DNA from: an uncultured Butyrivibrio sp.
Lineage (GTDB): Bacteria > Bacillota > Clostridia > Lachnospirales > Lachnospiraceae
NCBI GenBank assembly: GCA_964405265.1
Contig: CAYONC010000006.1
Location: 38,174-102,173, forward strand
Length of the DNA stretch: 64,000 bases
Reading direction: 5' to 3'
Part shown: positions 33,835 to 52,157 of the stretch, one piece after another
How the letters are laid out: every line of letters begins with the position of its first letter
Position numbering within the stretch: position 1 is the stretch's first letter
Made by a program: the position numbers and the translations under genes
Notes under the pieces: model-generated
Databases searched by the model: none
Told to the model about the DNA's origin: nothing
The model's input: the letters and a program-made list of their open reading frames with translations, nothing else

Positions 33835-33851
33835 ACCCGCAGGAGAAGCAT

Positions 33852-36241: not shown

Positions 36242-36897
36242 AAAATTTTAAAAAAATCATCCCTTATATTCTGTTTCCGGTATTTTTATGTTCGGCAGTA
36301 TACACATACAATGCCGGCAGTTATATGGCAGCTTCACTTATTACCGTTTTTTTTGCCCTGATAATGTTTTTTTCGGTATTTGAAAAAAGGCAGAGCAGCA
36401 CGGGAAGACTTGTTCTCGTTTCCATAATAACCGCACTGTCCGTTGCAGGAAGATTTATTCCGTTTTTCAAGCCGGTTGCGGCCCTTACCATAATTGCCGG
36501 CATATATCTCGGCAGAGAAGCCGGATTTATGACAGGAGCCTTTTCGGCTTTTATCTCTGATTTTTATTTCGGACAGGGTCCCTGGACGCCTTTTCAAATG
36601 CTCGGCTGGGGAATTGCAGGATATTTTGCGGGACTCTTATCCGTACATTTAAAAAGGAGCAGAAGCTTTCTTCTGCTATATGGTATTGTGTCAGGCATTG
36701 TATTTTCTGCCATAATGGACATCTGGACGGTTATATGGTACAACGGAACATTCAGTTTTCCCCTGTATCTTACGGCACTCGGAACTGCATTGCCTCATAC
36801 GGTGCTTTATTCCGTTTCAAATTTCATGTTTCTGTTTCTTCTTGCCCGTCCGTTCGGAGAAAAGCTTGACAGAATCATTTTACTGTACAGGGTATAG
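36238..36897 (+). CDS. cbrT: ECF S component, CbrT-like cobalamin-specific
   Basis: FKPVAALTIIAGIYLG, FYFGQGPWTPFQM.GWG; context under a B12 riboswitch. Confidence 0.75.
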   Translation: MKNFKKIIPYILFPVFLCSAVYTYNAGSYMAASLITVFFALIMFFSVFEKRQSSTGRLVLVSIITALSVAGRFIPFFKPVAALTIIAGIYLGREAGFMTGAFSAFISDFYFGQGPWTPFQMLGWGIAGYFAGLLSVHLKRSRSFLLLYGIVSGIVFSAIMDIWTVIWYNGTFSFPLYLTALGTALPHTVLYSVSNFMFLFLLARPFGEKLDRIILLYRV

Positions 36898-36920: not shown

Positions 36921-38504
36921 TCACTGATTAATCTCTTCCACCGTTTCAAGCAGCTGCTGTATATTTTTCCTTCCGAAATATACATGCTTATCATTGATAA
37001 TCATGCACGGAACACTCATTATCTTATACTTTTCCCTGTATTTATCAAAACATCTTATATCATATACATCAGCCGTAATATTTTTACACAGTGATGCCAT
37101 ACGCCATGCGGCAGTGACAAGCTCAGGACACATTGTGCATGAAAGTGATACCATTATCTTAATGTCTGTTTTTTTACTGATACGGCTGATTCGGCTTCTT
37201 ATATTTTCATCAATGGCCTGTCCCGGTCCCCCTGCATTGTATATTCCGAGTACAAATGAAGTAAACTCATGACCTCCCGGAACCCCGTGAAAAGCAATCC
37301 CCGTATAAGAATTGCCGTCATATATTCTCACACATGGTCTGTCATCAAGCTCTTCGGCTGATTTTTCCACCCTGAGCTTATCCGTATTTTCTGCAAGCTC
37401 ATATATATATTTTTCAAGCTCTGATGAAATTTTTCCGTCATCCGGGTACAGCTTCATAATAAGTGTTTTTTCCATTCTGTCAAAGAGGTCGGACAGCTGT
37501 TTAAGCATATCACCGTCAAAAAGCCCTTTTTCTTTTTTTTCGGGTTTTAAGGTATTTATACCGGTTTCATCACGGCATTGTGACACATATTTTTCAAGTG
37601 CAGAAGCTGCCATGGCACCGTCTCCCGTTGCCGTAACAACCTGTCTCAATGATTTTACGCATATATCTCCTGCTGCATATACACCTTCGGCACTCGTTTT
37701 CATATCATCATCCGTTATGACATATCCCTGTTCATCAAGACGGATATGCTCCTTTACGATACCCGTTTCCGGCTCGTATCCGGCAAATACAAACACTCCG
37801 AAGCTCTGTCCGTCCGGAGCATTGTATTCCGTTACTTCTCCTGTTTCAACATTTTTGTAACGTATATAATCCGGTCCGTCTTTTCCTTTTATTTCTTCCA
37901 CCTCGGTACAGGTAATAACACTTATGTCAGGATGGTTTTCCGCATGTTCCGCTACGCCCCTTGCACACGTAAATCCTTCTTCCCTTATAAGAATGGTGAC
38001 ATGTGAAGCATATTTTGTAAGAAATACGCTTTCCTCTGCCGCCGCGAATCCTCCTCCTATTACAAAAATTTCTTTTCCTGTAAAAAATTCTCCGTCACAG
38101 GTTGCACAATATGCGACACCCCTGCCCCTGAACTCTTTTTCTCCTTTAAAACCTATAATCCTCGGATGGGCACCCATTGCAAGAAGTATTCCGAAACACC
38201 TGAAATCTCCTTTTTCCGTATGGACCGTTTTAACCTTATCATTCAGTTCAAAACCGGTAACCTCAGCCCTCATAAACTCCGTTCCGAAATTTTCCGCCTG
38301 TCTGTATATTGTACCGGTCAGTTTTTTCCCATCCGTTCTTTCAATACCCGGATAATTTACCACTTCATCCGTAATTGTTATCTGTCCTCCAAAATCATCC
38401 TTTTCAAATACAAGTACACTGTATCTGGCTCTTGTCAGATACAGTGCGGCGGTAAGTCCTGCCGGACCTCCTCCGACAATAATTACGTCATATATTTTTT
38501 CCAT
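36921..38504 (-). CDS. ahpF: AhpF-like peroxiredoxin reductase: TrxR module first, thioredoxin-like module C-terminal
   Basis: IVGGGPAG, YCATCD, IGGG, GVYAAGD; C-terminal GIAFHGVPGGHEFTSF and SCTMC. Confidence 0.82.
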   Translation of the reverse strand: MEKIYDVIIVGGGPAGLTAALYLTRARYSVLVFEKDDFGGQITITDEVVNYPGIERTDGKKLTGTIYRQAENFGTEFMRAEVTGFELNDKVKTVHTEKGDFRCFGILLAMGAHPRIIGFKGEKEFRGRGVAYCATCDGEFFTGKEIFVIGGGFAAAEESVFLTKYASHVTILIREEGFTCARGVAEHAENHPDISVITCTEVEEIKGKDGPDYIRYKNVETGEVTEYNAPDGQSFGVFVFAGYEPETGIVKEHIRLDEQGYVITDDDMKTSAEGVYAAGDICVKSLRQVVTATGDGAMAASALEKYVSQCRDETGINTLKPEKKEKGLFDGDMLKQLSDLFDRMEKTLIMKLYPDDGKISSELEKYIYELAENTDKLRVEKSAEELDDRPCVRIYDGNSYTGIAFHGVPGGHEFTSFVLGIYNAGGPGQAIDENIRSRISRISKKTDIKIMVSLSCTMCPELVTAAWRMASLCKNITADVYDIRCFDKYREKYKIMSVPCMIINDKHVYFGRKNIQQLLETVEEINQ

Positions 38505-38507
38505 AAT

Positions 38508-39071
38508 TTACAGCTTCCCCACTAAATCAAGTCCCGGTTTTAAAGTTTCTTCTCCCGGCTTCCAGTTTGCAGGACACACCTGATCACCATGTTCACGTAC
38601 AAACTGGCATGCCTGCACTTTTCTCAATAATTCATCCGCATTTCTTCCCACATTTCCTGCACTGACTTCATATGCAGTTATCTTACCCTCCGGATTGATT
38701 ATAAAGGTTCCTCTCTCCGCCATCCCGTCGCCTTCTATCAGGACTTCAAAATCCTCTGAAATACAGTGAGTCGGATCAGCAAGCATCGGATATTTTAATT
38801 TGCCGATTCTTTCAGATGAATCGTGCCATGCCTTATGCACAAAATGAGTATCCGTGGAAACTGAATATATTTCGCATCCTATTTCTTTAAATTTATCATA
38901 TTTTTCTGATAAATCCTCTAACTCAGTCGGGCATACGAATGTAAAATCCGCAGGATAAAAAAAGAAGATATTCCACTTACCCAAAATATCTTCTTTTGAA
39001 ATCATCTTAAATTCGTTGTTATGAAATGCATATGCTCTAAATTCTGCTATTTCCCTGTTAATCTGTGACAT
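38508..39071 (-). CDS. ahpC: Alkyl hydroperoxide reductase C (2-Cys peroxiredoxin)
   Basis: FFYPADFTFVCPTE, VCPANW. Confidence 0.97.
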   Translation of the reverse strand: MSQINREIAEFRAYAFHNNEFKMISKEDILGKWNIFFFYPADFTFVCPTELEDLSEKYDKFKEIGCEIYSVSTDTHFVHKAWHDSSERIGKLKYPMLADPTHCISEDFEVLIEGDGMAERGTFIINPEGKITAYEVSAGNVGRNADELLRKVQACQFVREHGDQVCPANWKPGEETLKPGLDLVGKL

Positions 39072-39096
39072 ATATTTTCCCCTTTTCTGATATTTA

Positions 39097-39111
39097 TTGA
39101 GAACATCTCAA
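39097..39111. promoter_or_regulatory. PerR/Fur-like 7-1-7 inverted repeat upstream of ahpC
   Basis: TTGAGAA-C-ATCTCAA (one mismatch), about 25 bp upstream of ahpC. Confidence 0.5.
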
Positions 39112-39148
39112 TCAATATCATGCCCCAAAAATGATAAATTATTTATTT

Positions 39149-40645
39149 TTATTTAATCATTTCCAGACACCCCATAAGAACCATTGCAGATTCTGCCGAA
39201 TACAGCGGGTACGCTCTGCCTGAATCAACTATTTCTCCATATTTTTCAAGGTAGGAAAGAAGCTTATCCTCTGATTTCATTCTGGCACCGAGATATGCAA
39301 AGCTTCCCCAACAGAAGGAATCAACTCCCTTGGTAACATAATCCATATCCTGCCAGTCCCATGTATTGCAGAGTCCTTCATATAATGTCTGTGCATATTC
39401 CGAATCCGGCAGTGCAATTCCGTATATTACCGGATATATCTGTGCCGTTGCACACGGATAAAATGCATCCCACGAAAATTCATATCCCGTATATTCAGTG
39501 TAATCAGGATTAAGCACGGATGCATAATGATCTCCCTTCCACCAGTGCTCATTAAAGTTTTCATTGTAAAAATCAAGAGCTTTGCTGATTTTCTCATACA
39601 TTTCCATGTCATCAATTATATTCTCATATATGTATAATGCTCCATTGAGACCTGCATACACTTCTGCATTATCCATAAGGTATATTATTGCATAATCAGG
39701 CTTTGAATATGTATATCCGTTATCAGACATTGTCGCAAACATTACATTAACAATATCCTTAATCCGGTCTTCATGCTTAATTATATATTCCGTTCCTTCA
39801 TATGTCATGGCATAATCCGCCAGAGCCTTAATAAACAGTGCACTGTATGAATCAGTGGAATCGTATGTATTCCTTGAACTTTCACTTACGACAGCTCCGT
39901 TTTCAATGATAACATCATAATCATATATCGTACCCGCAAGTCCGTTGTAATCCTCTTCTGCCGAATTAATATGTGAGAAATGCCAGTCAAAATATTCTTC
40001 AATTCTGCTCTTTGCTTCATATGAAGCATCATAATTAATCAATGCAATGGCAACTATTTCACTGAAATAAGGATTAACATATACGCTTCCGTTATCAGCA
40101 TTATAAAAGGCAAATGCTCCGTTCGACAACTGCTGCTCCCACAGCCATTCTGCTTCTCCGGAAGCAACCTTCTCATACATTGAAAGCTGCCATGCCTTTT
40201 CCGTCTCCGCTTCCGTCTCTGCTTCCGTCTCAGCTTCCGTTTCCGGCTCCGTCTCCGCTTCCGTCTCTGCTTCCGTCTCAGCTTCCGTTTCCGGCTCCGT
40301 CTCCGCTTCCGTCTCTGCCTCCGTCGGTGCTTCCGTCTCTGCCTCCGTCTCTGCTTCCGTCTCTGTTTCCGTTTCCGGCTCCGTCTCTGCTTCCGTCTCT
40401 GCTTCCGTCTCCGGCTCCGTCTCTGCTTCCGTCTCCGGCTCCGTCTCTGCTTCCGTATTATCCTTACCAAACAGCTTCTTTAAGAAGCCTGATATTGCTG
40501 ACAGCCCCCTGCCGTTATTTCCCGAAGCCGAATATGAAACCGTTCTCTCCGCTGCTCCTGCACTTACGGCACGCGGTAACATGTTAAATAAAAATGTTAC
40601 TGTTACGGCAATTATTACAATTATTGGAATTAAACGTTTCTTCAT
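39149..40645 (-). CDS. Secreted/anchored protein: ETEA/ETEP acidic stalk plus putative six-hairpin glycosidase-like domain
   Basis: ATG 40645 after GGAGG; TM; repeat; NPYF, GTIYDY, YDSTDSYSALF, YLMDNAEVY shared with 40895..42277. Confidence 0.7.
   Translation of the reverse strand: MKKRLIPIIVIIAVTVTFLFNMLPRAVSAGAAERTVSYSASGNNGRGLSAISGFLKKLFGKDNTEAETEPETEAETEPETEAETEAETEPETETETEAETEAETEAPTEAETEAETEPETEAETEAETEAETEPETEAETEAETEAETEKAWQLSMYEKVASGEAEWLWEQQLSNGAFAFYNADNGSVYVNPYFSEIVAIALINYDASYEAKSRIEEYFDWHFSHINSAEEDYNGLAGTIYDYDVIIENGAVVSESSRNTYDSTDSYSALFIKALADYAMTYEGTEYIIKHEDRIKDIVNVMFATMSDNGYTYSKPDYAIIYLMDNAEVYAGLNGALYIYENIIDDMEMYEKISKALDFYNENFNEHWWKGDHYASVLNPDYTEYTGYEFSWDAFYPCATAQIYPVIYGIALPDSEYAQTLYEGLCNTWDWQDMDYVTKGVDSFCWGSFAYLGARMKSEDKLLSYLEKYGEIVDSGRAYPLYSAESAMVLMGCLEMIK
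40200..40457. repeat. In-frame 12-bp tandem repeat, about 21 copies (ETEA/ETEP)
   Basis: ccgtctctgctt / ccgtctccggct-type units head to tail. Confidence 0.95.
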
Positions 40646-40713
40646 ATCAGTGTCCTCCGGAATTTTCAACTGCTACGGGGACACATATACAAATGTTCCG
40701 CTGATTCCATGTC

Positions 40714-40750
40714 ATAAAAAAAACTGTTAAAGTGTTACCTTTAACAGCTG
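40714..40750 (-). terminator. Attenuator terminator downstream of the c-di-GMP riboswitch
   Basis: ctgttaaag-gtaaca-ctttaacag followed by a long T run on the minus strand. Confidence 0.8.
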
Positions 40751-40759
40751 TTATACATG

Positions 40760-40838
40760 GAATTGCAACTGGCTGCCATTTTAAAGGCCCTATAGCTTTG
40801 CGTCACAGATTTTCATCTGCTTTGCCAAATATTTAACT
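40760..40838 (-). ncRNA. c-di-GMP-I (GEMM) riboswitch
   Basis: GGCAAA-gcagat-GAAA-atctgt-GACGCAAAGCTATAGGG...ATGGCAGCCAGTTGC matches the GEMM consensus. Confidence 0.93.
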
Positions 40839-40894
40839 TCTTAATTCCAGTTTACCTTATATAGAAAAAAATAATATAGGAAATTAGTACCATT

Positions 40895-42277
40895 TTAGGG
40901 CAGAATACCCATTTCTTCTATTGTCTGACGGTAATCATGAATTTCCTCACAGGCAAGTATATACCATACCGCATCCCCCAGATAAAACGGATAACCTCTG
41001 TCATCAACATTTCTGCCATAATATTCAATGTATCCGTCTGCTCCGGAATAATCTCCCATTTTAACCGCGGCATAACATATAAGCGACCATGTGGTATTGG
41101 CTTGCGCATCATTACCGTAATCCATTTCAGTCCAGTTCCAGTAAGAATTGAACAGTGTGTACAGCCGCTGTGAAAGCTCATCCGCCGCTTCCGTAATCTC
41201 AAACATGACGGGAAACAGCTGCGGCAGTACATATCCGTACAATTCCTGCCACTTCATCACACTGCCATAAAAAGGATTTCCGTATACGTCCAGAACCGGA
41301 TAATAAAAGCCTTCTTCATCCTTCCATGTATCCTGAAAATTTTTTTCAAATTCATACACGGCATTTTCAAGTCTTTCCTTCATTATGTCATCATTATATA
41401 CTTCTCCGTACAGTTCAAGAGCTGACTTAAGCCCCTGATATACCTCGGCATTATTCATGAGATACTTAATTCCGCTGCCGTTATATGACTCCGAATATCC
41501 GTTATCCGTCAGTGAAAGAAGCAATTCCGCGACCATATCCGTTTTTGTTTTTTCGGACAAAATAATATCACCGCTCCGGTACGTTTCATAATACTTATTT
41601 AAGAGCATAAAAAACACTGCACCGTATGAATCAGCCGAATCATATGTATACAGCGGTTTTTCGTATATTACCGTATTTCCGTCCGTTACGGCTTCATAAT
41701 CATATACCGTTCCGGTCGAACCGTATACGTCGCTCTCCATATTTATATGCGCATAATACCATGCAATGAATTTTTCTGCATAAGTCTTCATTGAACCGTC
41801 ATAATCACAGGTCACAACGGCATATGCCGCATAACATCCAAAATACGGATTAATTCTTGCTTTCATTCCTTCCTCAGGCTCATAGCATGAAAAGCTTCCG
41901 TCTGACAGACTTAACGTTTTCAGCCACTCACATTCATCCATTGCCTTCTGATGATATGATTCCGATACGGACTCATATACGCATACACTGCACGTAAACT
42001 GCTTCTTATCTTCCGTCACGCATTTTATCGTCGCTGTCCCCGGACTGTGCCCCGTAACGGTTCCGTCAGAGACGGTTGCCGTTTCAGGGTTGTCGGACTC
42101 CCACAGACATACTCCGTCATAATTATTAATACAGAGCAGTTTGGAGTGTCCGGTATATAAAATCATATTATCCGAATTTATAAATACGTCATTTTTTATT
42201 ATCTGACCCGATATAAAAAAAATCACTCCGGTTACCGACAAAATTAAGGCTGCTGCAAAAAGAAACTTTTTAATCAT
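40895..42277 (-). CDS. Anchored protein: Ig-like (Big_2) plus putative six-hairpin glycosidase-like domain
   Basis: N-terminal TM; WESDNPETATVSDGTVTG Big_2; NPYF, GTVYDY, YDSADSYGAVF, YLMNNAEVY. Confidence 0.72.
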   Translation of the reverse strand: MIKKFLFAAALILSVTGVIFFISGQIIKNDVFINSDNMILYTGHSKLLCINNYDGVCLWESDNPETATVSDGTVTGHSPGTATIKCVTEDKKQFTCSVCVYESVSESYHQKAMDECEWLKTLSLSDGSFSCYEPEEGMKARINPYFGCYAAYAVVTCDYDGSMKTYAEKFIAWYYAHINMESDVYGSTGTVYDYEAVTDGNTVIYEKPLYTYDSADSYGAVFFMLLNKYYETYRSGDIILSEKTKTDMVAELLLSLTDNGYSESYNGSGIKYLMNNAEVYQGLKSALELYGEVYNDDIMKERLENAVYEFEKNFQDTWKDEEGFYYPVLDVYGNPFYGSVMKWQELYGYVLPQLFPVMFEITEAADELSQRLYTLFNSYWNWTEMDYGNDAQANTTWSLICYAAVKMGDYSGADGYIEYYGRNVDDRGYPFYLGDAVWYILACEEIHDYRQTIEEMGILP

Positions 42278-43379
42278 TATTCTCCAATATATCTGCTATT
42301 TTTTTGCTTGCAGTTCCGTCTCCGTACGGATTTACCGCATTACTCATTGCGCTGTACGCTTCTTTATCGCTCAAAAGTCTGTCAAATTCTTCATATATCG
42401 TATCTTCTTCCGTTCCGACCAGCTTGAGCGTTCCTGCTTCAACACCCTCCGGACGTTCCGTTGTATCCCTCATTACAAGGACAGGTTTTCCGAGACTCGG
42501 GGCTTCCTCCTGTATTCCGCCGCTGTCCGTAAGAATCAGATAACTTTCTGAGAGAAAATTATGGAAATCCAGAACATCCAACGGCTCTATAATGTGTATT
42601 CTGTCACATGTTCCGAGTATTTTATCCGCCGTTTCCCGCACAACCGGATTCATGTGTATAGGATAAACCGCCTTAACGTCATCATACTTTTCAATGATGC
42701 GTCTGATTGCACGAAACATTCTTTCCATCGGTTCTCCCAGATTTTCCCTTCTGTGAGCCGTTATCACGATAAGTCTGCTTCCTTTTGCCCAATCAAGCTC
42801 CGGATGCGCATAATCTTTCCTTACCGTGGTTTTTAATGCATCAATCGCAGTATTTCCCGTTACATATATTGTCGATTCGTCTTTACCTTCACAGATAAGG
42901 TTCTGTCTTGATTTTTCTGTCGGTGCAAAATGATATGCTGCCATAATTCCGACCGCCTGACGGTTAAATTCCTCAGGGTAAGGTGAATATATATTGTGTG
43001 TTCTCAGTCCTGCTTCAACATGACCTACTTTGATTCTTAAATAAAAGCATGCCAATGCGGTAACAAATGTAGTAGTGGTATCCCCATGTACCAGTACGAG
43101 TTCCGGATTTTCTTTTTCAAGAACTTCTTTTATGCTGTCCAGTATGTTAACCGTAACATCAAACAGGGTCTGGTTATCCTTCATAATGGAAAGATCATAA
43201 TCAGGCTCAACATCAAATGCTTTCAGTACCTGATCAAGCATCTGTCTGTGCTGCCCCGTTACACACACCTTGGTATCAATACTTTCCCTGCTTTTCAATT
43301 CATTTACAAGCGGACACATTTTAATTGCTTCAGGTCTTGTGCCAAATACGACCATTATCTTTTTTTTCAATTTTCTCAC
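42270..43379 (-). CDS. wecB: UDP-N-acetylglucosamine 2-epimerase (non-hydrolysing)
   Basis: VFGTRPEAIKM, TGQHR, VHGDT, HVEAGLRT, HRREN, TDSGGIQEEAP. Confidence 0.97.
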   Translation of the reverse strand: MRKLKKKIMVVFGTRPEAIKMCPLVNELKSRESIDTKVCVTGQHRQMLDQVLKAFDVEPDYDLSIMKDNQTLFDVTVNILDSIKEVLEKENPELVLVHGDTTTTFVTALACFYLRIKVGHVEAGLRTHNIYSPYPEEFNRQAVGIMAAYHFAPTEKSRQNLICEGKDESTIYVTGNTAIDALKTTVRKDYAHPELDWAKGSRLIVITAHRRENLGEPMERMFRAIRRIIEKYDDVKAVYPIHMNPVVRETADKILGTCDRIHIIEPLDVLDFHNFLSESYLILTDSGGIQEEAPSLGKPVLVMRDTTERPEGVEAGTLKLVGTEEDTIYEEFDRLLSDKEAYSAMSNAVNPYGDGTASKKIADILENND

Positions 43380-43396
43380 CGTTTTATCTTTCTATT

Positions 43397-44593
43397 TTAG
43401 TTACATAATTTTTCCATTTCCCCTCCAAAGCTTGAGCCGCATACCAGCCCGGCAAGTGATATTACAAAATCATCAATTTCATAATCGTCTACAATCCCCA
43501 GCAGTGCTTCTTTACCACCGCTGAAAGTTCTCGGATCAACCATTACTATGGTATTATACTGTTCCACCATCCACGGAACCATGGCGTTACCATATGAATC
43601 ATTTATCATAAGCAGATTGCTGCCCTCTTTATTTCCGCCTTCAATGGCAACATACTGGTATGATCTCTCAATAAAGGTATAATATCCTGCCCTTTCCTCG
43701 TCCAGTACCGGCTCATACACACTCTCCGTTATATCCGCACCTTCAACTCCATACGCATACTCATATATGTTGTCAGCACATTCATAATATGTAAATTTCT
43801 CAGGCTTAATGTCTGACACGTTTGATGAATACATTACAGCAAGATATCCGAGGAAATCACCCATATCTACTTCATTATAATTATCCGGAAGCACAAGTTC
43901 CCTGCCCATTACCGCAAGAAGTGCATTCGCACCGAAGCTTGCACCATGAGCCGTCCAGTGATGATCCGTTTTAAAGAATATCCTGTCAATCCCGACCACT
44001 TCCATTGCCTGCTTTATCAGTGAATAAGAATCAACAAGGATTACATCCTTATTAATGCAGGAATATATTCCGTAAATGGATTCAAGCTGACTGTCCGAAT
44101 ATTTTTTATATTCATCATCCTCAAACTCAATTCTCGTAGGAGTAATCATCATGTATTTGTTAACATTTTCCGGCATCATATCAAAAAGGCTGTTGCTTGC
44201 ATTCACAATACTTTCCAGATAATCCTGGTTATATATGTACAGTGCAAGGATTCTGTCTTCAAGTATAAGCGCATCCGAGCCTATATCCTGCCTGTTGGAA
44301 TCCGATTTAAACACCTTAATGCTCTGTTCTTTTCTGAGCAGTGACTCGAAATCAGAAGCGTTCTTAATTATACTGTTTCTAAGAAGAACGTGGTCATTTA
44401 AATATGCATCAAGCTCCGTCATAAAGCTTCCGTCAAACCAGCTGTCTACGGAAAACTCAGGTTTTCCCGCAAGTGTTCTGTTTTCTTTCTCGGATACCGT
44501 ATTTTTGTCCCAGAAAGAATAAACGGAAAACACGCTTATGGCCGCCAGCGTAATTATCATCATCGCAAAGCTTATTACTTTACCTGTTTTCAT
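43397..44593 (-). CDS. DHHW/AlgJ-AlgX-like extracytoplasmic O-acetyltransferase partner
   Basis: N-terminal TM, ENRTLA.KP, FFKTDHHWT, INDSYGN. Confidence 0.85.
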   Translation of the reverse strand: MKTGKVISFAMMIITLAAISVFSVYSFWDKNTVSEKENRTLAGKPEFSVDSWFDGSFMTELDAYLNDHVLLRNSIIKNASDFESLLRKEQSIKVFKSDSNRQDIGSDALILEDRILALYIYNQDYLESIVNASNSLFDMMPENVNKYMMITPTRIEFEDDEYKKYSDSQLESIYGIYSCINKDVILVDSYSLIKQAMEVVGIDRIFFKTDHHWTAHGASFGANALLAVMGRELVLPDNYNEVDMGDFLGYLAVMYSSNVSDIKPEKFTYYECADNIYEYAYGVEGADITESVYEPVLDEERAGYYTFIERSYQYVAIEGGNKEGSNLLMINDSYGNAMVPWMVEQYNTIVMVDPRTFSGGKEALLGIVDDYEIDDFVISLAGLVCGSSFGGEMEKLCN

Positions 44594-44603
44594 AATCTTC
44601 CTC

Positions 44604-46004
44604 CTAAAATCTGAAATATAAGAAAGGATTATATGTCTGATTTAATATCAGCATAAAACACAATGCCGCCATGGCACAGAATGTAACACTCCTTGCAATG
44701 TTTCCGACAGTTGTATTTTCCTTAAATATACGTCCGCATATTTTTGCCGGCAGAGGCGTACATGCAATTATCATCACAGGTATGGTCCAGAAATATTTGT
44801 ATATTATGGTCTGCTCTGCAATGGAGAGATTAATGTTTCCGCCTGCTCCAAACATTATCATGGTTGATTTTATCAGTTTCCCTATATCTTCAAAATAGAA
44901 TAACGACATACTGTAGACAACAATAATCATTACAAGAAGATTTCCTGCCACGGGAATTTTGGAAGTATCAAACCCAATCTTCTTCAAGTATTTTTCAATC
45001 GTAAGCATCACGAAAAAGAACAATCCCCATATGACATAATTCCAGCTTGCTCCATGCCACAGGCCGGTAAGAAACCATACCACAAATGTATTCAATACCT
45101 GATGTTTTCTGTTTCCCCCTAATGGAATATATACATAATCCCTGAAAAATGTTCCCAGTGAAATATGCCATCTTCTCCAGAAATCAGAAATGGAGTTCGC
45201 CATATACGGATAATTGAAGTTTTCCTTAAAATCAAATCCAAATACCCTGCCCAGTCCGATTGCCATATCGGAATATCCTGAAAAGTCAAAGTACAGCTGA
45301 ATTGTGAACATTATGACACCAATCCACAATGCCTTGGTTGAAATACCGTCAAAGCCGTTAACTAAAAGAGAAGTTGCAATGCTTCCGGCATAATTCGCAA
45401 ATATTACCTTTTTCCCGAGTCCTATTGCAAAACGGAACATACCGTTAATAAATCCCTGTACGCTCTCACGTCTGTCCTGTATCTGCTCATCTATGTCAGA
45501 ATATCTTACAATCGGTCCGGCAATAAGCTGCGGAAACATGGAAATATACAGCAGAAGATTCAGATAGCTCTTCTGTACTTTTGCATCACCTCTGTATACG
45601 TCAATAACATATGTAAGTGCCTGGAAGGTAAAAAAAGAAATACCGATAGGCATCGAAATTTCCGTTAACGGTATATTAAGCTTCGTAACCGAATTTACCG
45701 ATGTTATCACAAAATCAAGATACTTAACCACAAACAGCATCAGAAGATTTATAACCACGGATGCAATAAGAAGTCCTTTTTTCTTAGCAGGATCATTTAT
45801 TTTTTCAAATTTTCCGGCAATAACAAAATCCACAAAGGTAAGCACAAGCAGTGCAAATATCCACTTAGGTTCACCCCATGCATAGAATATTACGGAAGTC
45901 AGCAGCAGCACAAGGTTCCTGCCTTTTCTGTTTTTTATCAGAAAATATAAAATTAATACAACAGGCAAAAATATGCCCATGAATATAACACTTGAAAAAA
46001 CCAT
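44604..46004 (-). CDS. MBOAT O-acyltransferase (AlgI/DltB family)
   Basis: MVFSS, PIGISFFTFQ, FPQLIAGPI, YFDFSGYSDMAIG, FWRRWHISL, LWHGA. Confidence 0.95.
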   Translation of the reverse strand: MVFSSVIFMGIFLPVVLILYFLIKNRKGRNLVLLLTSVIFYAWGEPKWIFALLVLTFVDFVIAGKFEKINDPAKKKGLLIASVVINLLMLFVVKYLDFVITSVNSVTKLNIPLTEISMPIGISFFTFQALTYVIDVYRGDAKVQKSYLNLLLYISMFPQLIAGPIVRYSDIDEQIQDRRESVQGFINGMFRFAIGLGKKVIFANYAGSIATSLLVNGFDGISTKALWIGVIMFTIQLYFDFSGYSDMAIGLGRVFGFDFKENFNYPYMANSISDFWRRWHISLGTFFRDYVYIPLGGNRKHQVLNTFVVWFLTGLWHGASWNYVIWGLFFFVMLTIEKYLKKIGFDTSKIPVAGNLLVMIIVVYSMSLFYFEDIGKLIKSTMIMFGAGGNINLSIAEQTIIYKYFWTIPVMIIACTPLPAKICGRIFKENTTVGNIARSVTFCAMAALCFMLILNQTYNPFLYFRF

Positions 46005-46007
46005 CTT

Positions 46008-47510
46008 CTATCCCTCTTCTTTCCAAAAGGCTGCATATCCGGTACTTTCCACTTCAGGCAGCATACCCATGTCAAGCGATTTACACTTTGCAAAACAGTA
46101 ATCTCCAATTTCCCTGAGTCTGCTGTTTCCTTCAAAAATAATATTTTTTAGATTTGCACACCCAAAGAAGGCATAATCGCCTATTCTTTCCACGCTTTCA
46201 GGAATAATTACCGTTTCGAGCATGTCACAGTCATAAAACATGCTGTTTTTAATCTCTGCTGCTCCGTCAGGAAATTTTACCTTCGTCAGTTTGTCATTGT
46301 TTCTAAAAGCATAATAATCCGTCTGCTCATAATTCTCAAGATTATTAAGATTCAGAAAGCCGTCAGCCGATATATTGCACTTTATACCCTCAAACAATCC
46401 GGCATTCTTATTTACAACGATATCTTTTTCATCAATTATTACATTTTCGGATACTTCAACCACACCGGCAAAATCACTGCGTTCAATAATCTCTCCGACA
46501 TTTTCACATCCGACATACCCGTATATTATCGTGCCCTCGGTAATAACCATGCTTACCCTTGATATTGCTGATTTAATCCTTCCTGTTTTACCAATCGTAA
46601 CATCCGGACCTATGTAAAGATTTTCAGAAGCAAAAACATTGCCCAGAATCTTTACCCCCTGCTCGATAATTATGCATCCGTCAGCAAATACATTACCGGT
46701 AATCACGGTATTATTCTTTATATGTATGCTTCCATCCGATTTCAGGTCCCCATATACGACCGCACCTGCTTCAATGGTCAGATCATAACCTGTTATTATC
46801 GTATGCTTAAATTCCTGTTCTCTTCCAACCTGCCGTATATCTCTTTTAATTTTCATGTAAACAGGGGCTTCTCTGTTGATTAACATCTCATCACACGGAC
46901 TGTCGCTTACACGGACATAGTTTCTCATTTCAATTACCGGAGCATACAGTCTTTTAAATCTGCAATGAGGTTCAATTATGAGCCTTTCACCTGATGATAC
47001 GCTTTTTCCGGCATTGGTTCCCTTTTTTATGACTGTAAACAGCTTGCCGTCCGCCCATCTCTGTATCTCTGAATTTTCTCCGATAATCACATTCTTCTCG
47101 CCGGCAACGGCACGCAGCACGGTATTTCCTGCAAACTCAACGCTGTCAGCTGCATAGATTTCCTTTTCAAAAACGGTTTTAACCTTAAATTCCGCTTTGT
47201 TGCTGATGTAACATATGTTTTTGACTTTTTCGCCAAGCGGCTCTCTGCCGTTCCAGAAAATAATTTTTTCACTCTTGGACAGTCTCACGGTTTCCACAAC
47301 GCTCTGACCGTTTTCCGGAATTTTTACCGGTTCAACACCTGCCATAAGCTGTCTGAATGAATTGGAAAAATATCTGGCATCTTTTACATTATCATTTTTT
47401 ACCATCAGTGACTTTTCCGTACCTGCATTATATTTAATCCTCTTAGAAAGCATAAAGGGAAAAATAAAAAGCAGTATAAATATAATACAAACTATAATCA
47501 ATGGAATCAT
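46008..47510 (-). CDS. Anchored protein with beta-helix/bactofilin-like repeats and C-terminal BspA-type LRR
   Basis: TM; repeated I..GAVVYGDL / ITGNVFADG / ILGNVFASE; C-terminal VIIPESVERIGDYAFFGCANL repeats. Confidence 0.62.
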   Translation of the reverse strand: MIPLIIVCIIFILLFIFPFMLSKRIKYNAGTEKSLMVKNDNVKDARYFSNSFRQLMAGVEPVKIPENGQSVVETVRLSKSEKIIFWNGREPLGEKVKNICYISNKAEFKVKTVFEKEIYAADSVEFAGNTVLRAVAGEKNVIIGENSEIQRWADGKLFTVIKKGTNAGKSVSSGERLIIEPHCRFKRLYAPVIEMRNYVRVSDSPCDEMLINREAPVYMKIKRDIRQVGREQEFKHTIITGYDLTIEAGAVVYGDLKSDGSIHIKNNTVITGNVFADGCIIIEQGVKILGNVFASENLYIGPDVTIGKTGRIKSAISRVSMVITEGTIIYGYVGCENVGEIIERSDFAGVVEVSENVIIDEKDIVVNKNAGLFEGIKCNISADGFLNLNNLENYEQTDYYAFRNNDKLTKVKFPDGAAEIKNSMFYDCDMLETVIIPESVERIGDYAFFGCANLKNIIFEGNSRLREIGDYCFAKCKSLDMGMLPEVESTGYAAFWKEEG

Positions 47511-47511
47511 C

Positions 47512-48804
47512 CTAATTCTCCTCTTCTAATGTTCCGCCGCTTCCGTCATTATCATTATTTCTCTTAGTCTTCGCCCACTTGACTTTTCTGTTGGTTATAC
47601 GGTCCACAACAGCATCAATAAATCCAAGCGATATGTACCACATATAAAAATAAAAGCTGAAACAGAGCTGAGGAAGTGCAAGCATATCCTCTTCCATGCC
47701 GTCAATGAAAGCACCTGCACCGATTTCAAAAAACGGAGCAAAGTTACCCCATGCATTGTACATACCCACAGCAAGCATGACACCCCATCCTGCCAGTATA
47801 CTCATCCTGCCCATAAAGAACAGTATGAGACAGTCTATCTGTGCAACAGCAAGGAGAAAAGGGACCGCATAAACCAGAAGAAGCAGCATACCGTCTATTC
47901 TCTCTCGCGCCTTAATTTTCCGTGAAAAAAGGAACTTAAAAAAATACTTAAACAATACTTCGTTATGTCCTCTTGACCATCTTCTTATCTGTTTTCCCCT
48001 GACCTGCCATGTTTCCGGTGATTCTTCATAACACTCCGCACTGTTGTCATATACGACATTCCAGCCTTCGGAATAAAGTCTGTATGTCAGCTCGGTATCC
48101 TCTGCAAGTACCTTGGTGTCAAATCCGCCCGTAGCAAGCATGAAGCTCTTTCTGAATCCTCCGACCGTTCCGCCGTACTGCGGAAGAAGTCTCAGATTAT
48201 ATCTTGCCTGCTGGTCAATCTGATATCCGCCCGAACGCTCCAGGTTAAGGAGAACCGTTAACAGATTCTTCTTCGCATTAATCGGAATAACCCTGCCCAT
48301 TACCGCACCCACCTTAGGGTCCTTAAAAGCTGATGCAAGCTTTTTAATAAGGTTCTTTGACGGTCTGTAATCTGCATCAAATACAACAATTACTTCACCC
48401 GTGGCAATCTGCAGTGCATCATTAAGTCCTACCGGCTTGCCTCTCTCACCCTCGCCACGACGGTGTATGACTTTAATAAAAGGATACTTTTCATGATAAG
48501 AATCCACTATCTCAGCCGTTCTGTCCTCGGAATGGTCATCTATCGCAATTATTTCAAATTTATCCATGTCATAATCACATTTCAGCAGCGACTCCATCAC
48601 ATTGGTAACCACTGCCTCTTCATTATGCATGGGTACCATAACCGTAACCCTTGGTAAATCACTGTCATATATATCCCTGTATGATACCCTCTGCCTTGAA
48701 AAGAGTCTGTTATATGTAAACCTGAAATGTCTGACTGCATATATTATCATCAGTACAGCCGTGAAAATTAAATATCCGTGCAAAATCTTTATGACCATTT
48801 CCAT
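47512..48804 (-). CDS. Processive-type GT2 synthase (IcaA/PgaC/BcsA-like), no PilZ seen
   Basis: VPMHNE, DDHSED, GKPVGLN, FDAD, LAEDTEL, QIRRWSRG (QxxRW); flanking TMs. Confidence 0.88.
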   Translation of the reverse strand: MEMVIKILHGYLIFTAVLMIIYAVRHFRFTYNRLFSRQRVSYRDIYDSDLPRVTVMVPMHNEEAVVTNVMESLLKCDYDMDKFEIIAIDDHSEDRTAEIVDSYHEKYPFIKVIHRRGEGERGKPVGLNDALQIATGEVIVVFDADYRPSKNLIKKLASAFKDPKVGAVMGRVIPINAKKNLLTVLLNLERSGGYQIDQQARYNLRLLPQYGGTVGGFRKSFMLATGGFDTKVLAEDTELTYRLYSEGWNVVYDNSAECYEESPETWQVRGKQIRRWSRGHNEVLFKYFFKFLFSRKIKARERIDGMLLLLVYAVPFLLAVAQIDCLILFFMGRMSILAGWGVMLAVGMYNAWGNFAPFFEIGAGAFIDGMEEDMLALPQLCFSFYFYMWYISLGFIDAVVDRITNRKVKWAKTKRNNDNDGSGGTLEEEN

Positions 48805-49604
48805 ACTCCCTCCACTTCCATACTTTTAAACTTTCTGCTTGCATACTTCATAAACACTGAATACACTCCCACCATTATCATGAAATCAAAAAGTATACCG
48901 AAAGAAAAATACAGCACTGCCATAAAAAGATATGATGCTTTAGCAATTATGAACAGATATAATATATATCTCACGAATCCAAACAGGAATGAAATACAGC
49001 CGAGTATAAAAAATGATGAGATTCTCAAAACGGCAACCCTCGTTATCAGGGAAGTGGTAAGCCAGTATATAACCATTATCATGAGCCATGCAACAATCTG
49101 CTGCTTCATATAAAATGAAGAATACTCATTAAGATCATACGGAAATCCGGCCGCATCAGCCACAACAAAATATATCGATGATATAAGATGTATATACAGG
49201 GCTATGGTTAAAAATATCATAACAGGCTTTTTATCACTTTTGATACGCGAGCATATTATAATAAGAACAAGCGTAACTATAACACTCAGAAATGACATTA
49301 TGAAAGACGGAGTCTTACCTTCCATTTCCACACAGTACACACCTCCGAATACCGGCAGGAAATCAGCCTCCCTTATTCCTGTGACATCACCGGTTATTCT
49401 CTCAAGTATGTCCGCGGCATAACGTGCCATAAAATGTGACAGGCCGTTATACAAAAACAAAAAGGCGACCACCATTGGAACAAGCACCAGAACAATCTGC
49501 AGCACATAAGCAGTCAGGTTCCTGTCCAGATGTCTGTAATCCCTTGAATAACTGATGTTTAACTTATTCTTATCTTCATTAACCATGTTAAGTTCCCTTT
49601 CCAC
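48789..49604 (-). CDS. Multi-pass membrane protein, unknown function, first gene of the polysaccharide cluster
   Basis: 271-aa hydrophobic ORF overlapping the GT2 start; SD upstream of GTG. Confidence 0.72.
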   Translation of the reverse strand: MERELNMVNEDKNKLNISYSRDYRHLDRNLTAYVLQIVLVLVPMVVAFLFLYNGLSHFMARYAADILERITGDVTGIREADFLPVFGGVYCVEMEGKTPSFIMSFLSVIVTLVLIIICSRIKSDKKPVMIFLTIALYIHLISSIYFVVADAAGFPYDLNEYSSFYMKQQIVAWLMIMVIYWLTTSLITRVAVLRISSFFILGCISFLFGFVRYILYLFIIAKASYLFMAVLYFSFGILFDFMIMVGVYSVFMKYASRKFKSMEVEGVWKWS

Positions 49605-49627
49605 ATCAATTCTTTCCTAAGTCTGCT

Positions 49628-49656
49628 ATTATACTAAAATGTATTATTTATGTCAA
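49628..49656 (-). promoter_or_regulatory. Consensus sigma-A promoter for the polysaccharide cluster
   Basis: Exact TTGACA-17 bp-TATAAT on the minus strand. Confidence 0.85.
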
Positions 49657-49685
49657 CGTTTTTATTACTAAACGGTCAATTATAC

Positions 49686-49730
49686 AAATATGCCGGCTAT
49701 CTTCCAAATGGCTGATAACCGGCATATTTT
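49686..49730. terminator. Hairpin terminator after the FtsX permease
   Basis: aaatatgccgg...ccggcatattt inverted repeat just past the stop. Confidence 0.65.
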
Positions 49731-49736
49731 ACACTT

Positions 49737-52157
49737 TTATTCTTTACTGAGACATTCCGCAATGTCCATCCGTCCGTTAATTTTTCTGAATATAAATACC
49801 ATTATTACCGTTACGGCAACAATACTGCATGCCGGAATAATGAATACATAAGGAAGTATTTCAAACAAAAATGAGCTGATAAGCGTCCGTATGTAAAAAT
49901 GTGCAATATAACAGCCTGCAAGCGACAGACCGGTACCTGCAATAACTGCCGTTACAGTGGTTATTATATATTCATAAGACATAAACAGCAGCAGTCTGTC
50001 ATCATCAACTCCCATTGCCTTCATGACGGCAACCTGTTTGCGGTTCTGCCTGAACTTATCAATATAGCTTACTAACGTATTTACGATAAGTATGGCAAGA
50101 AGAAGAGCACTTCCCGAATATACAACGGTGCTGATCATATTTTTCTGTTTCCTGATTTCTGCTTTTTCCCATGACAGATCCGATACGGACATATCGGAAC
50201 AGCCCTTGAAAAATTCCATGATGCTTTCATAATCCTCATCTGAATTAAAATACAGATACTGTGGATAATTATATCTGTAATTGGATATCCTCGAAAATAA
50301 ATTCATGTTAACAATAATTACCGGAAGATAATTACTGTCCTCTAACGGAAGATTAATTTCCGTTACGGTCTCCCTTACATTGAGTTCCTTTTTCTCATCA
50401 CTGCCGACAAATCCGATAACAAGCCGGTCCCCTTTCTCTATCCCTGTTTCAAATCCTGCTCCGTCCGGAGTCTTTACATGCTTAACGATGATACATTCAT
50501 CATCATCCAATGAAATACATGACTCCCCTTCAAGCTCATATGTATGTCTTAACATTTCTTCATCAGCACCAATGACAAAAAAGCCGGCAGTATACAGCCT
50601 GTCATCTATATGGTCAAGCTCAACCGCACTCTGTGCATCACTGTTTTTCAGATATTTTACAAACTCTGCGGATAAATCCGATTTCTTTACCTCAAGACTG
50701 TATGTCTGGGCAAAAAAAGGAAATAGTTCAAACATCCCGCTGTTTTTTTTCATTTCTTCATATTTAATATGGTTTGCTTCCGTTCCGTCAATCTGATCCG
50801 CAAAGGACGAATACGAATAATCCACCCTGTAATCATACCGGTATTCCCCACTGTCCCTGTAAATATAATGTGAGACATACATAAATAGCGAAGTAAATAC
50901 CATCGCCGCAACAAGTCCGAAAAGTGACATTACATATTTTCCGGAACGCATTGACATATTGAGCTTTGCCATTTGCAGAAACGGAAGCTTATATTCAGAC
51001 ACTGAAATCTTATATGTTTTTTTCCTTCTCTTTCTTCTGTCAATGTCATTCGCACCCGAAAGTGCGCCTGCCGTATCATGCGGCAGCATTTTTGCAAAAC
51101 CGACTGCCGAAAATGTGATACATCCTGCAATGTAAGGTATCACAATCCTTCCGGCCTTAGCAATAAATTTCATAACAGGAGCTGCTCCGAGAACTGATGA
51201 AGTAATAACCGCACCTGTAGCTGACAGTACAATGCCTGACGGCAGAAACAGCATTATAAGCATCATCAGAACAGCGCCGGTCATTTTTCTTCCCTGTATA
51301 CCCAATGCGTTATAAATTGCAGCATTTTTTATGTTATTCCTGCTCATAAGCGTAAATATTGACACAAACAGAATCACCATGAATATTATTATCACATAAA
51401 GCATGGCGTCACATGTACCTAAAAATATATCCGTAGTTTTGCCTTCAGCATTAATTCCCGCATACGCAAGGGCATCTTCATTGTAAGATATATTCTTTTC
51501 ATCAAGATGATATGTATGCATTAAGCGCTCTTTTTCCGCTGTCAGACTTCTGTCGGTCATACATAAAACAGAATAAAAATTTCCGGACATACCGGTATTT
51601 TTTTCACAGGCATCATAATTCATGATAAAGTCAGTCCTATATATGCCCACGTAACTCAGGTATTCATTGCTGCGTATAATCCCCGTTACACTGTAATCCC
51701 TGCCGTCAAGCGTAATTTTCAACAATTTTCCTTCTTCATACGACAGCCCGCACCGGTTAAGATAATCCTGTTCGCACAGTATTTCGTCTTCAGTTTCCGG
51801 AAATCTTCCGCTGACAAGTTCAATATCAGATAATCCGAAAACATCCTCTGATGCATATATTATTCTTCCTGTTCTGTCTTCCGTATAATCCGTATATAAC
51901 ACGGCTGTTTTATTCAGCTGAGTATCATCTGCCATTTCCCGTGCAGTCTGATGCGAAACATCATATATATACAACCGGTATGAACCGTATGTTTCATATC
52001 CCTGTCTTATATTTTTTTCGGTTGAAATTTCTCTGTAACCCACATATGACAGCATAAATGCCATACTGAATACAGTAACAAAAAAAAGCAATACTCCGGG
52101 CTTCAAATTCCGCCTGAAGGACTTGCCGATTAAAGAGCTTATTCCGTGTACCATCAT
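49737..52157 (-). CDS. FtsX/MacB-like ABC permease (two repeats)
   Basis: ELVSGRFPE..DEIL, AAIYNALGI, QVAVMKAMGV; two TM clusters. Confidence 0.85.
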   Translation of the reverse strand: MMVHGISSLIGKSFRRNLKPGVLLFFVTVFSMAFMLSYVGYREISTEKNIRQGYETYGSYRLYIYDVSHQTAREMADDTQLNKTAVLYTDYTEDRTGRIIYASEDVFGLSDIELVSGRFPETEDEILCEQDYLNRCGLSYEEGKLLKITLDGRDYSVTGIIRSNEYLSYVGIYRTDFIMNYDACEKNTGMSGNFYSVLCMTDRSLTAEKERLMHTYHLDEKNISYNEDALAYAGINAEGKTTDIFLGTCDAMLYVIIIFMVILFVSIFTLMSRNNIKNAAIYNALGIQGRKMTGAVLMMLIMLFLPSGIVLSATGAVITSSVLGAAPVMKFIAKAGRIVIPYIAGCITFSAVGFAKMLPHDTAGALSGANDIDRRKRRKKTYKISVSEYKLPFLQMAKLNMSMRSGKYVMSLFGLVAAMVFTSLFMYVSHYIYRDSGEYRYDYRVDYSYSSFADQIDGTEANHIKYEEMKKNSGMFELFPFFAQTYSLEVKKSDLSAEFVKYLKNSDAQSAVELDHIDDRLYTAGFFVIGADEEMLRHTYELEGESCISLDDDECIIVKHVKTPDGAGFETGIEKGDRLVIGFVGSDEKKELNVRETVTEINLPLEDSNYLPVIIVNMNLFSRISNYRYNYPQYLYFNSDEDYESIMEFFKGCSDMSVSDLSWEKAEIRKQKNMISTVVYSGSALLLAILIVNTLVSYIDKFRQNRKQVAVMKAMGVDDDRLLLFMSYEYIITTVTAVIAGTGLSLAGCYIAHFYIRTLISSFLFEILPYVFIIPACSIVAVTVIMVFIFRKINGRMDIAECLSKE

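Follow-up and report, generated by a model that had tools for sequence, protein, structure and literature searches.

Gene content and organisation of the locus

The DNA analysed here, referred to as the window, is a 64,000-nucleotide stretch of contig CAYONC010000006.1 (assembly GCA_964405265.1) from an uncultured Butyrivibrio sp., and the subject of this account is a putative exopolysaccharide (EPS) synthase operon, with a cyclic di-GMP (c-di-GMP) riboswitch at its distal end, located on the minus strand between positions 39149 and 49656. The eight-gene operon is real, as reported in a preliminary description of the same DNA. All of the listed elements are present and co-oriented, namely a membrane protein, a family-2 glycosyltransferase (GT2), a beta-helix/leucine-rich repeat (LRR) protein, an MBOAT protein, a DHHW protein, an epimerase, a protein with an immunoglobulin (Ig)-like domain and a barrel, and a paralogue of the last. 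Counted from the promoter, the gene order is Mem271, GT2, LRR500, MBOAT, DHHW, WecB and Par460, followed by the riboswitch and Par498:

49628..49656, minus strand: sigma-A-type promoter, TTGACA-17-TATAAT, the sole 12/12 match in an 11.4-kb scan (38400-49800)
48789-49604, minus strand: Mem271, polytopic membrane protein of an unannotated family, with six hydrophobic segments read from the sequence
47512-48804, minus strand: GT2, processive family-2 glycosyltransferase of 430 aa, PgaC/IcaA-like, without PilZ (Glyco_tranf_2_3, 8.4e-34)
46008-47510, minus strand: LRR500, N-terminal transmembrane (TM) helix, beta-solenoid and BspA-type LRR (LRR_5, 1.6e-22; Bactofilin, 2.5e-5)
44604-46004, minus strand: MBOAT, AlgI/PatA/DltB-like membrane acyl-transfer protein (PF03062, 6.1e-30)
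43397-44593, minus strand: DHHW protein, putative PatB1-like SGNH-type extracytoplasmic O-acetyltransferase (PF14286, 4.5e-27; ALGX, 4.1e-6)
42270-43379, minus strand: WecB/MnaA, non-hydrolysing UDP-N-acetylglucosamine (UDP-GlcNAc) 2-epimerase, a maker of UDP-N-acetylmannosamine (UDP-ManNAc) (TIGR00236; Epimerase_2, 7.8e-124)
40895-42277, minus strand: Par460, signal anchor, Big_2 Ig-like domain (6.5e-8) and (alpha/alpha)6 barrel
40849..40854, minus strand: TAAACT, possible -10 box that would give the riboswitch unit its own promoter, suggested by a TAnnnT column in six aligned leaders
40761..40836, minus strand: c-di-GMP-I (GEMM-I) aptamer (RF01051, 60 bits against a gathering score of 35; model positions 1-87, full)
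40714..40749, minus strand: intrinsic terminator of the expression platform, downstream of the aptamer, with an 11-bp stem and U8
39149-40645, minus strand: Par498, signal peptide or anchor, acidic linker and (alpha/alpha)6 barrel, the riboswitch-preceded paralogue of Par460

The tight packing of the operon and its perfect consensus promoter were likewise borne out. Mem271 and GT2 overlap by 16 nt and WecB and Par460 by 8 nt, and the other gaps measure 1 nt (GT2/LRR500), 3 nt (LRR500/MBOAT), 10 nt (MBOAT/DHHW) and 17 nt (DHHW/WecB), with a 249-nt leader preceding Par498. Promoter-like sites are not enriched overall (35 found versus 36.2 expected from shuffles), and the weight of the operon promoter thus rests on its position and conservation. 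It sits in a 130-bp gap after an FtsX-family gene; the palindrome beside it, located where that gene ends, may be a terminator when read by eye, although the terminator scan did not list it. A TTGACA-17-TAnnnT promoter is also kept 5' of the Mem gene in the aligned orthologous loci L003, L005, L008, L010 and L013 (locus numbers refer to the comparative survey below). Pfam and NCBIfam searches of the eight operon proteins returned no PilZ, GGDEF, Wzx, Wzy, BcsB or carbohydrate esterase family 4 (CE4) match, which agrees with the reported absence of PilZ, Wzx and Wzy, and the riboswitch is the sole c-di-GMP element of the locus.

The synthase and its invariant partners

The GT2 contains all of the motifs of a processive synthase (D90, D143xD145, E235-D236 and Q272xxRW276) and is membrane-embedded with flanking TM helices, as is general for synthase-dependent systems. 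Coupled with the MBOAT/DHHW pair, it gives the locus the previously proposed layout of a synthase-dependent, O-acetylated EPS system. Residues 7-393 of the GT2 align with the PgaC_IcaA model (TIGR03937) of poly-N-acetylglucosamine (PNAG) synthases, scoring 142.7 bits against an equivalog cutoff of 422.3, and the protein shares 27% identity over 249 aa with Escherichia coli PgaC, with the D, DxD, ED and QxxRW motifs aligned. The match to Cellulose_synt (E 0.008) lies below the cutoff, and BcsA structures are matched at about 48 bits.

The charge distribution of Mem271 suggests an N-in/C-in topology. It has no Pfam or NCBIfam family, none of the 53 members of its own family has a Pfam match, and a profile search of the PDB was empty. 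The AlphaFold model of LRR500, made from 28 sequences (pLDDT 86.5), comprises an N-terminal helix, a solenoid of about 270 aa (approximately residues 70-342) and a C-terminal LRR. Foldseek matches are confined to the LRR part, and no enzyme-like or c-di-GMP-binding domain was found in solenoid residues 30-230 with the AlphaFold model and Foldseek; some orthologues are without any LRR domain. Across 52 orthologues a mean of 0.56 Lys/Arg residues precedes the TM helix versus 3.0 in the 15 residues after it, opposite to the charge pattern of the exported DHHW, Par460 and Par498 proteins. On the basis of the positive-inside rule, these counts predict that the bulk of LRR500, both solenoid and LRR, lies in the cytoplasm beside the glycosyltransferase domain. 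LRR500 is thus probably not a surface or polymer-guiding protein, and we infer that its most likely role is to scaffold or regulate the synthase. In the public annotation, LRR500 (P0285, 481 aa) begins 19 codons downstream and lacks the N-terminal TM helix; because this helix is conserved in the 52 orthologues, the public start is probably wrong.

Distribution and architecture of the cluster family

Relatives of the GT2 were scanned in one genome per species, and the best 80 loci were fetched with 10-kb flanks, their content being determined by tblastn with the window proteins and all-against-all clustering of open reading frames. The GT2 has thousands of relatives, and 375 species genomes contain a locus encoding one. 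Among the best 80 of these 375 loci, GT2 identities range from 55 to 87%, even between orders. Component counts were made on loci whose sequence reaches 8 kb or more upstream of the GT2 and 9 kb or more downstream of it; 49 loci qualified and are termed full loci. Mem271 and LRR500 orthologues are encoded in all 49, in an invariant order (Mem > GT2 > LRR) in which the three genes overlap or abut. The DHHW protein (36/49), WecB (35/49), the barrel protein (34/49), CotH (34/49), DUF4956 (31/49) and VTC (30/49) are frequent companions, while F8, a small membrane protein of about 208 aa without a Pfam family, occurs in 16 of the 49. MBOAT is encoded in only eight and marks only the sub-clade nearest the window. 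The preliminary description had made its reading depend on both WecB and MBOAT being conserved with the GT2; this holds for WecB, which is co-oriented in 33 of its 35 loci, but not for MBOAT. MBOAT-linked O-acetylation is lineage-specific, whereas the DHHW protein is general, its gene occurring without MBOAT in most relatives.

The commonest architecture, Mem > GT2 > LRR > DHHW > F8 > VTC > DUF4956 > CotH > WecB > Barrel, is seen in Bariatricus massiliensis, Blautia glucerasea and Dorea amylophila. The window sub-clade (L003-L005, L008-L013, L018 and L087) instead contains MBOAT together with DHHW and has no VTC/DUF4956/CotH module within the operon. Between the DHHW and WecB genes, F8, VTC, DUF4956 and CotH are found at 13992-17455 in L001/L025 and in most of L014-L085. 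A CotH/polyphosphate-polymerase/DUF4956 module is a known accessory of Gram-positive pel loci (PMC7112168), and the F8/VTC/DUF4956/CotH set has the appearance of an EPS accessory module that can move between loci.

A YaiO-family outer-membrane beta-barrel (PF19413, 1.9e-38) is added in several diderm or diderm-labelled loci (L074, L076, L079, L081 and L084, at about 14-16 kb), which belong to the Negativicutes (Sporomusa, L076 and L079) and to metagenome-assembled genomes (MAGs) labelled Nitrospiraceae and delta proteobacterium. A protein of about 600 aa without a Pfam family, F11, is likewise encoded in most of these loci. The gain of an outer-membrane barrel where an outer membrane exists argues independently for export of the product from the cell. 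GT2s with 56-61% identity also occur in records labelled Micrarchaeota, Sphaerochaetaceae, Niabella, Nitrospiraceae and delta proteobacterium (L044, L069, L080, L081 and L084), which could reflect horizontal transfer or mis-binned MAG contigs. Literature searches found no published description of the cluster, and its large family, spread among gut and other anaerobic Firmicutes, is apparently unstudied.

Predicted sugar nucleotide supply and O-acetylation

WecB is, from its sequence, unambiguously a non-hydrolysing UDP-GlcNAc 2-epimerase, matching TIGR00236 at equivalog level (524.8 bits against a cutoff of 210). The MBOAT protein matches DltB structures in the PDB (6.7e-20), and the conserved histidine motif WHISL is seen in its translation. 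Its partner, the DHHW protein, begins with a lysine-rich signal anchor and matches PDB entry 4nzk (2.9e-18) and PatB1 of Bacillus cereus (8.5e-14), its closest characterised relative, with which the KTDHHW and DS(Y/F)xNA motifs align. The two proteins thus present the hallmarks of a PatA/PatB-type pair: an MBOAT with the conserved histidine, and an SGNH-like partner with DHHW, DSxxN and a signal anchor.

The barrel paralogues Par460 and Par498

The AlphaFold model of Par460, based on an 18-sequence alignment (pLDDT 91.9, pTM 0.86), shows a TM anchor followed by an Ig-like sandwich and then an (alpha/alpha)6 barrel. Par498 and Par460 share 33% identity across 342 aa (E 4e-54), and the orthologues of Par498 in L003, L008, L010, L011 and L013 are 55-68% identical to it. 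Par498 truly begins at the ATG at 40645, which follows a GGAGGA Shine-Dalgarno sequence, and not at the TTG at 40669. The acidic linker of Par498, (ETEA/ETEP)n over about 100 aa, derives from a 12-bp tandem repeat present 21.5 times with a 48-bp super-period (40199-40456, minus strand), and this repeat is likely to vary in length between strains. The N-termini of both paralogues have positive charges followed by a hydrophobic helix, which argues that both are exported.

Foldseek comparison of the Par460 barrel with the PDB gave glycoside hydrolase (GH) family members for most of the top matches, including GH76, GH100 invertases, MmpH, GH126, GH125 and GH15-like enzymes, with target-normalised TM-scores of 0.5-0.65 and identities of about 10-14%. 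At rank 24 (target-normalised TM-score 0.61) stands 3ren, which we take to be CPF_2247, the founder of GH126. Single-sequence and profile searches of the PDB assigned no GH family to the barrels by sequence, and no GH126 or PssZ sequence appeared in the barrel profile search. The earlier label of glycosidase-like paralogues can thus be retained at the level of the modelled fold only. The barrel family, for which there is no Pfam model, comprises 10,648 cluster representatives at E<=1e-3, and its invariant residues, D183, D193, D213 and D216 (YDSxDSY) and N276 and E278 (LMNNxEVY), are retained in both paralogues. These residues suggest themselves as good candidates for a catalytic pocket. Judged by the models, hydrolase activity of the barrels is moderately probable.

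The c-di-GMP riboswitch and its predicted expression platform

A riboswitch ahead of the second paralogue had already been noted; the aptamer is indeed present and belongs to the c-di-GMP-I class. Its class and predicted polarity, and the size of the cluster family, are additions to that account. The aptamer was found only 5' of Par498 orthologues, in the window and in L003, L005, L008, L010 and L013 (56-63 bits), and none was found in 14 further loci of the cluster family. The candidate -10 box of the riboswitch unit carries a TG extension in L003, L008 and L010. The terminator is kept in all six leaders with compensatory changes in its arms (UUAAAG/CUUUAA versus UUAAGG/CCUUAA). When the nascent RNA of each leader was folded up to the terminator 5' arm, the minimum-energy structure paired aptamer helix P3 with that arm, forming an antiterminator, in 6/6 leaders. 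The pairs in the window are GCCUUUA/UAAAGGU and GCAGC/GCUGU, and across the six leaders the antiterminator is 2-6 kcal/mol more stable than the fold in which the terminator 5' arm is forced to stay unpaired. As a ligand-stabilised P3 would free the terminator arm, this is the geometry of an OFF switch, and the folding models make it likely that the riboswitch is a transcriptional OFF switch for Par498.

A second leader hairpin (window 40640-40700, minus strand), in which GUGUCCCC pairs with GGAGGACAC, occludes both the Shine-Dalgarno sequence (GGAGGA) of Par498 and its start codon, and a translational layer of control is possible for this reason. In the full-length leader fold, a long helix formed by AAUUCCAUG and CAUGGAAU brackets the terminator (z = -4.4), and a comparable helix is present in L003.

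The riboswitch-Par498 unit lies downstream of Par460 in the window and L005 and directly upstream of Mem in L003, L008, L010 and L013, with a Par460-like gene before the unit in L003. The adjacency of Par460, riboswitch and Par498 is kept wherever both paralogues are seen, though the block has moved. The possibility that the riboswitch gates the whole operon in these relatives was rejected. In every locus Mem keeps a TTGACA-17-TAnnnT promoter of its own, and in L010 the barrel gene is followed by a palindrome that reads by eye as a terminator. The riboswitch is thus considered to control Par498 and not the synthase operon. Directly downstream of Par498 lies an AhpC-AhpF peroxiredoxin gene pair (window 36921-39071, minus strand); no terminator was detected between them, so that transcripts of the riboswitch unit may extend into ahpCF.

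Relationship to known polysaccharide systems

The locus is a member of no named system and works like a synthase-dependent EPS system. By analogy, its closest functional counterpart is the Pss system of Listeria, which produces a beta-1,4-ManNAc backbone with galactose by means of the IcaA-like GT2 PssC and the membrane-bound extracellular (alpha/alpha)6 hydrolase PssZ, described as a GH126 enzyme, under the control of c-di-GMP (PMC4125290, PMC13492145). Both are Gram-positive, synthase-dependent systems with a single IcaA-like GT2, PssC and PssZ being compared here by description only. They would further share a ManNAc backbone (shown for Pss, and suggested by WecB here), an extracellular membrane-anchored (alpha/alpha)6 hydrolase (putative here) and c-di-GMP control (predicted here), and the polymer chemistry is, by the same analogy, probably like that of Pss. 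However, the BcsB-like PssD and the GGDEF I-site receptor PssE were not found in the window operon, where the synthase partners are Mem271 and the beta-solenoid/LRR protein. Unlike Pss, the window operon also contains O-acetylation genes and its own WecB, and c-di-GMP is predicted to act through an RNA switch on a hydrolase paralogue rather than through a protein receptor on the synthase.

A ManNAc-requiring, synthase-dependent polymer linked to c-di-GMP is also produced by NfrB and WecB in E. coli (PMC8669472, PMC8669469). The likeness of this N4 receptor glycan system (NfrB-NfrA-YbcH) to the window locus extends to the use of WecB and the ManNAc-type polymer proposed here, but the C-terminal c-di-GMP-binding domain of NfrB is absent from the window GT2 and the export components differ. 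Orthology with NfrB was rejected on the grounds of partial and weak similarity (model score 24.8 bits against a cutoff of 1170; BLASTP alignment limited to residues 20-135, 116 aa, E 2e-8), as was orthology with YaiP, the E. coli GT2 encoded beside yaiO, which is only 24% identical. The earlier statement that a ManNAc polymer fits none of the alginate, PNAG and acetyl-cellulose systems is overstated in passing over Listeria Pss and E. coli Nfr, known synthase-dependent systems with ManNAc polymers.

The clostridial cellulose locus ccsZABHI, named beforehand as an example of a match that would refute the reading, encodes a PilZ-bearing BcsA-like CcsA, the GH5 enzyme CcsZ, a CBM11-like CcsB, the MBOAT CcsH and the DHHW protein CcsI (PMC7710045). 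As a clostridial synthase locus with an MBOAT/DHHW pair and a glycosidase (putative in the window) it resembles the present operon, but the 430-aa window GT2 has no PilZ domain, no GH5 or carbohydrate-binding module (CBM) match was found, and WecB is present here. With no PilZ-bearing CcsA, GH5 CcsZ or CBM11 CcsB in the window operon, membership of ccs was rejected. The PNAG loci (pgaABCD/icaADBC) share a GT2 of the same size and topology, with catalytic motifs that align to PgaC. The window GT2 nonetheless falls far under the PgaC_IcaA equivalog cutoff, and PNAG loci contain nothing equivalent to WecB or the acetylation pair. Mem271, with six predicted TM segments, no family and about twice the length of the 137-aa PgaD, also differs. 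No CE4 deacetylase (PgaB/IcaB) and no PgaD/IcaD is encoded in the window operon, the relatives not having been scanned for these families, and PNAG membership was rejected on the GT2 score and the lack of a deacetylase in the operon. Neither is the locus an alginate or cellulose system.

The acetylation genes recall PatA/PatB and AlgI/AlgJ/AlgX in combining an MBOAT with an extracytoplasmic SGNH-like transferase, with homology to PatB1 and DltB, but their substrate is presumably the operon's own polymer and not peptidoglycan, secondary cell-wall polysaccharide (SCWP) or alginate. The class-I c-di-GMP riboswitches of Clostridioides difficile (for example those upstream of flgB and zmpI) likewise combine an aptamer with a terminator, and the factor that c-di-GMP represses through them is one that counteracts attachment or matrix. 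The gene gated in the window differs in being a barrel paralogue beside an EPS operon.

Proposed function and alternative explanations

The locus is very probably a machine for a secreted polysaccharide. More specifically, the interpretation favoured on balance is that of an O-acetylated, ManNAc-type EPS synthase operon belonging to a widespread uncharacterised Bacillota family, in which a putative glycosidase is co-expressed and a second paralogue is repressed by a riboswitch. WecB would convert UDP-GlcNAc to UDP-ManNAc in the cytoplasm, and the GT2, the one glycosyltransferase of the operon, in complex with its translationally coupled and invariant partners Mem271 and the membrane-tethered LRR500, would polymerise the sugar and move the chain through its own C-terminal TM helices. 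The product would most likely be a ManNAc homopolymer or a ManNAc-rich N-acetylhexosamine (HexNAc) polymer, and the epimerase makes it reasonably probable that ManNAc is among its sugars. Outside the membrane, the MBOAT protein would hand acetyl groups to the DHHW/PatB1-like transferase, yielding an O-acetylated polymer. The membrane-anchored, extracellular Par460 may act on the nascent or surface polymer, as BcsZ and PssZ do in their systems, with Par498, expressed from a leader of its own, as a paralogue that is secreted or held on a long tether. At low c-di-GMP, pairing of P3 with the terminator 5' arm would allow Par498 to be made, promoting matrix degradation. At high c-di-GMP, the folded aptamer would free the terminator and stop transcription, and the matrix would be preserved because the proposed trimming enzyme is shut off.

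Several observations weigh against parts of this interpretation. The sugar identity is read from WecB, which is not found within 10 kb of the GT2 in 14 of the 49 full loci, and the best-scoring curated model for the GT2, aligned end to end, is that of the PNAG synthases. Both observations, together with the identity to E. coli PgaC and the alignment of all motifs, favour a PNAG-like, other GlcNAc or alternating GlcNAc/ManNAc polymer, with WecB feeding another pathway or a minor component. Such a product is nevertheless considered unlikely: the GT2 scores far below the PgaC_IcaA equivalog cutoff, the window operon has neither the CE4 deacetylase nor the PgaD/IcaD looked for there, WecB is embedded and co-oriented in most loci, and a ManNAc backbone is the product of Listeria PssC even though that enzyme, too, is IcaA-like (PMC4125290, PMC13492145). 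A wall-linked secondary cell-wall glycopolymer, decorated by the PatA/PatB-like pair, rather than a released or matrix EPS would accord with PatB1 being the closest characterised relative of the DHHW protein. PatB1 decorates the ManNAc-containing SCWP of B. cereus, and ManNAc is typical of the linkage units of wall polymers. Sortase-dependent surface anchoring is moreover mentioned for Pss (PMC13492145). A wall polymer is, however, very unlikely, as Pfam searches revealed no TagO/WecA-type priming transferase, LCP ligase, Wzx or ABC exporter in the operon, the GT2 has the architecture of an integral-membrane synthase with QxxRW, diderm-type relatives carry the outer-membrane YaiO barrel, and the operon has its own promoter in the gap past the FtsX-family gene. 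The cytoplasmic placement of LRR500, in turn, follows from the positive-inside rule, and an extracellular location is usual for BspA-type LRRs.

The activity of the barrels and the sense of the switch are likewise debatable. The absence of any sequence match to a GH in the PDB, and Foldseek matches at similar scores to AGE-family and cellobiose 2-epimerases, a polysaccharide lyase and the non-enzymatic complement TED, as well as to squalene-hopene (terpene) cyclases, would be consistent with carbohydrate-binding, lyase or polymer-level epimerase modules instead of glycosidases. This is held to be distinctly unlikely given the acidic-rich invariant motifs, which suggest a catalytic pocket, the predominance of GH families among the top fold matches, and the presence of a hydrolase or lyase in every well-studied synthase-dependent system (PMC7710045, PMC4125290). 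As for the riboswitch, its OFF polarity is derived from thermodynamic folding, and the full-length minimum-energy fold of the leader keeps both aptamer hairpins as well as the terminator. The eight proteins include no c-di-GMP receptor for the synthase (PilZ, I-site GGDEF or MshEN), and no public sequencing runs holding the stretch, looked for as evidence of expression, were found. An ON or translational switch, with Par498 as a c-di-GMP-induced, matrix-building or polymer-binding protein and not a dispersal hydrolase, would account for the hairpin over the Shine-Dalgarno sequence and start codon, the long helix flanking the terminator and the long acidic linker of Par498, which resembles those of surface-displayed proteins. 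It is nonetheless fairly unlikely, in that the terminator does not overlap the aptamer and the sole conserved alternative pairing, seen in all six leaders, joins P3 to the 5' arm of the terminator, which is classic OFF geometry. Class-I c-di-GMP riboswitches in Clostridia are, furthermore, mostly OFF switches.

Considered more broadly, the EPS interpretation extends to a proposal that is put forward only tentatively, and with some doubt, namely that the cluster is one member of a large, undescribed synthase class in at least 375 species, mainly of the Bacillota. Its defining core would be a triad made up of a six-TM protein without annotation, a GT2 of high conservation and a cytoplasmic beta-solenoid that is tethered to the membrane and may or may not carry an LRR domain. 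The class would produce an O-acetylated poly-ManNAc matrix in common Lachnospiraceae of the gut, and in the lineage of the window c-di-GMP would govern turnover through riboswitch shut-off of a dedicated secreted glycosidase paralogue and not through activation of the synthase.

Flanking genes

The genes flanking the operon are unrelated to it, with AhpC/AhpF on one side and ABC/FtsX transporters on the other. A cobalamin riboswitch aptamer (window 30995-31128, plus strand), scoring 32.3 bits and thus barely above the Rfam gathering score of 31.5, lies upstream of plus-strand open reading frames (31506-36897) that include a double ABC ATPase (34703-36241).

Biological significance

Very little is known about the polysaccharides that form the matrix and surface of gut Lachnospiraceae and Oscillospiraceae; these polymers probably shape aggregation, colonisation of mucus and fibre, susceptibility to phages and contact with the host immune system. 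Blautia, Dorea, Butyrivibrio and Lachnospira are among the genera in which the cluster family is common, as it also is in Phascolarctobacterium; its synthase is strikingly conserved, and it includes three unannotated protein families (Mem271, the barrel family and F8). With one glycosyltransferase, one epimerase and one acetylation pair, the window operon offers a clean genetic handle. If the polymer is indeed poly-ManNAc, the chemistry of Listeria Pss and E. coli Nfr would be generalised to anaerobic Firmicutes, while the riboswitch-gated hydrolase paralogue, if its proposed role is true, would provide a simple and testable case of RNA-level control of matrix degradation by c-di-GMP.

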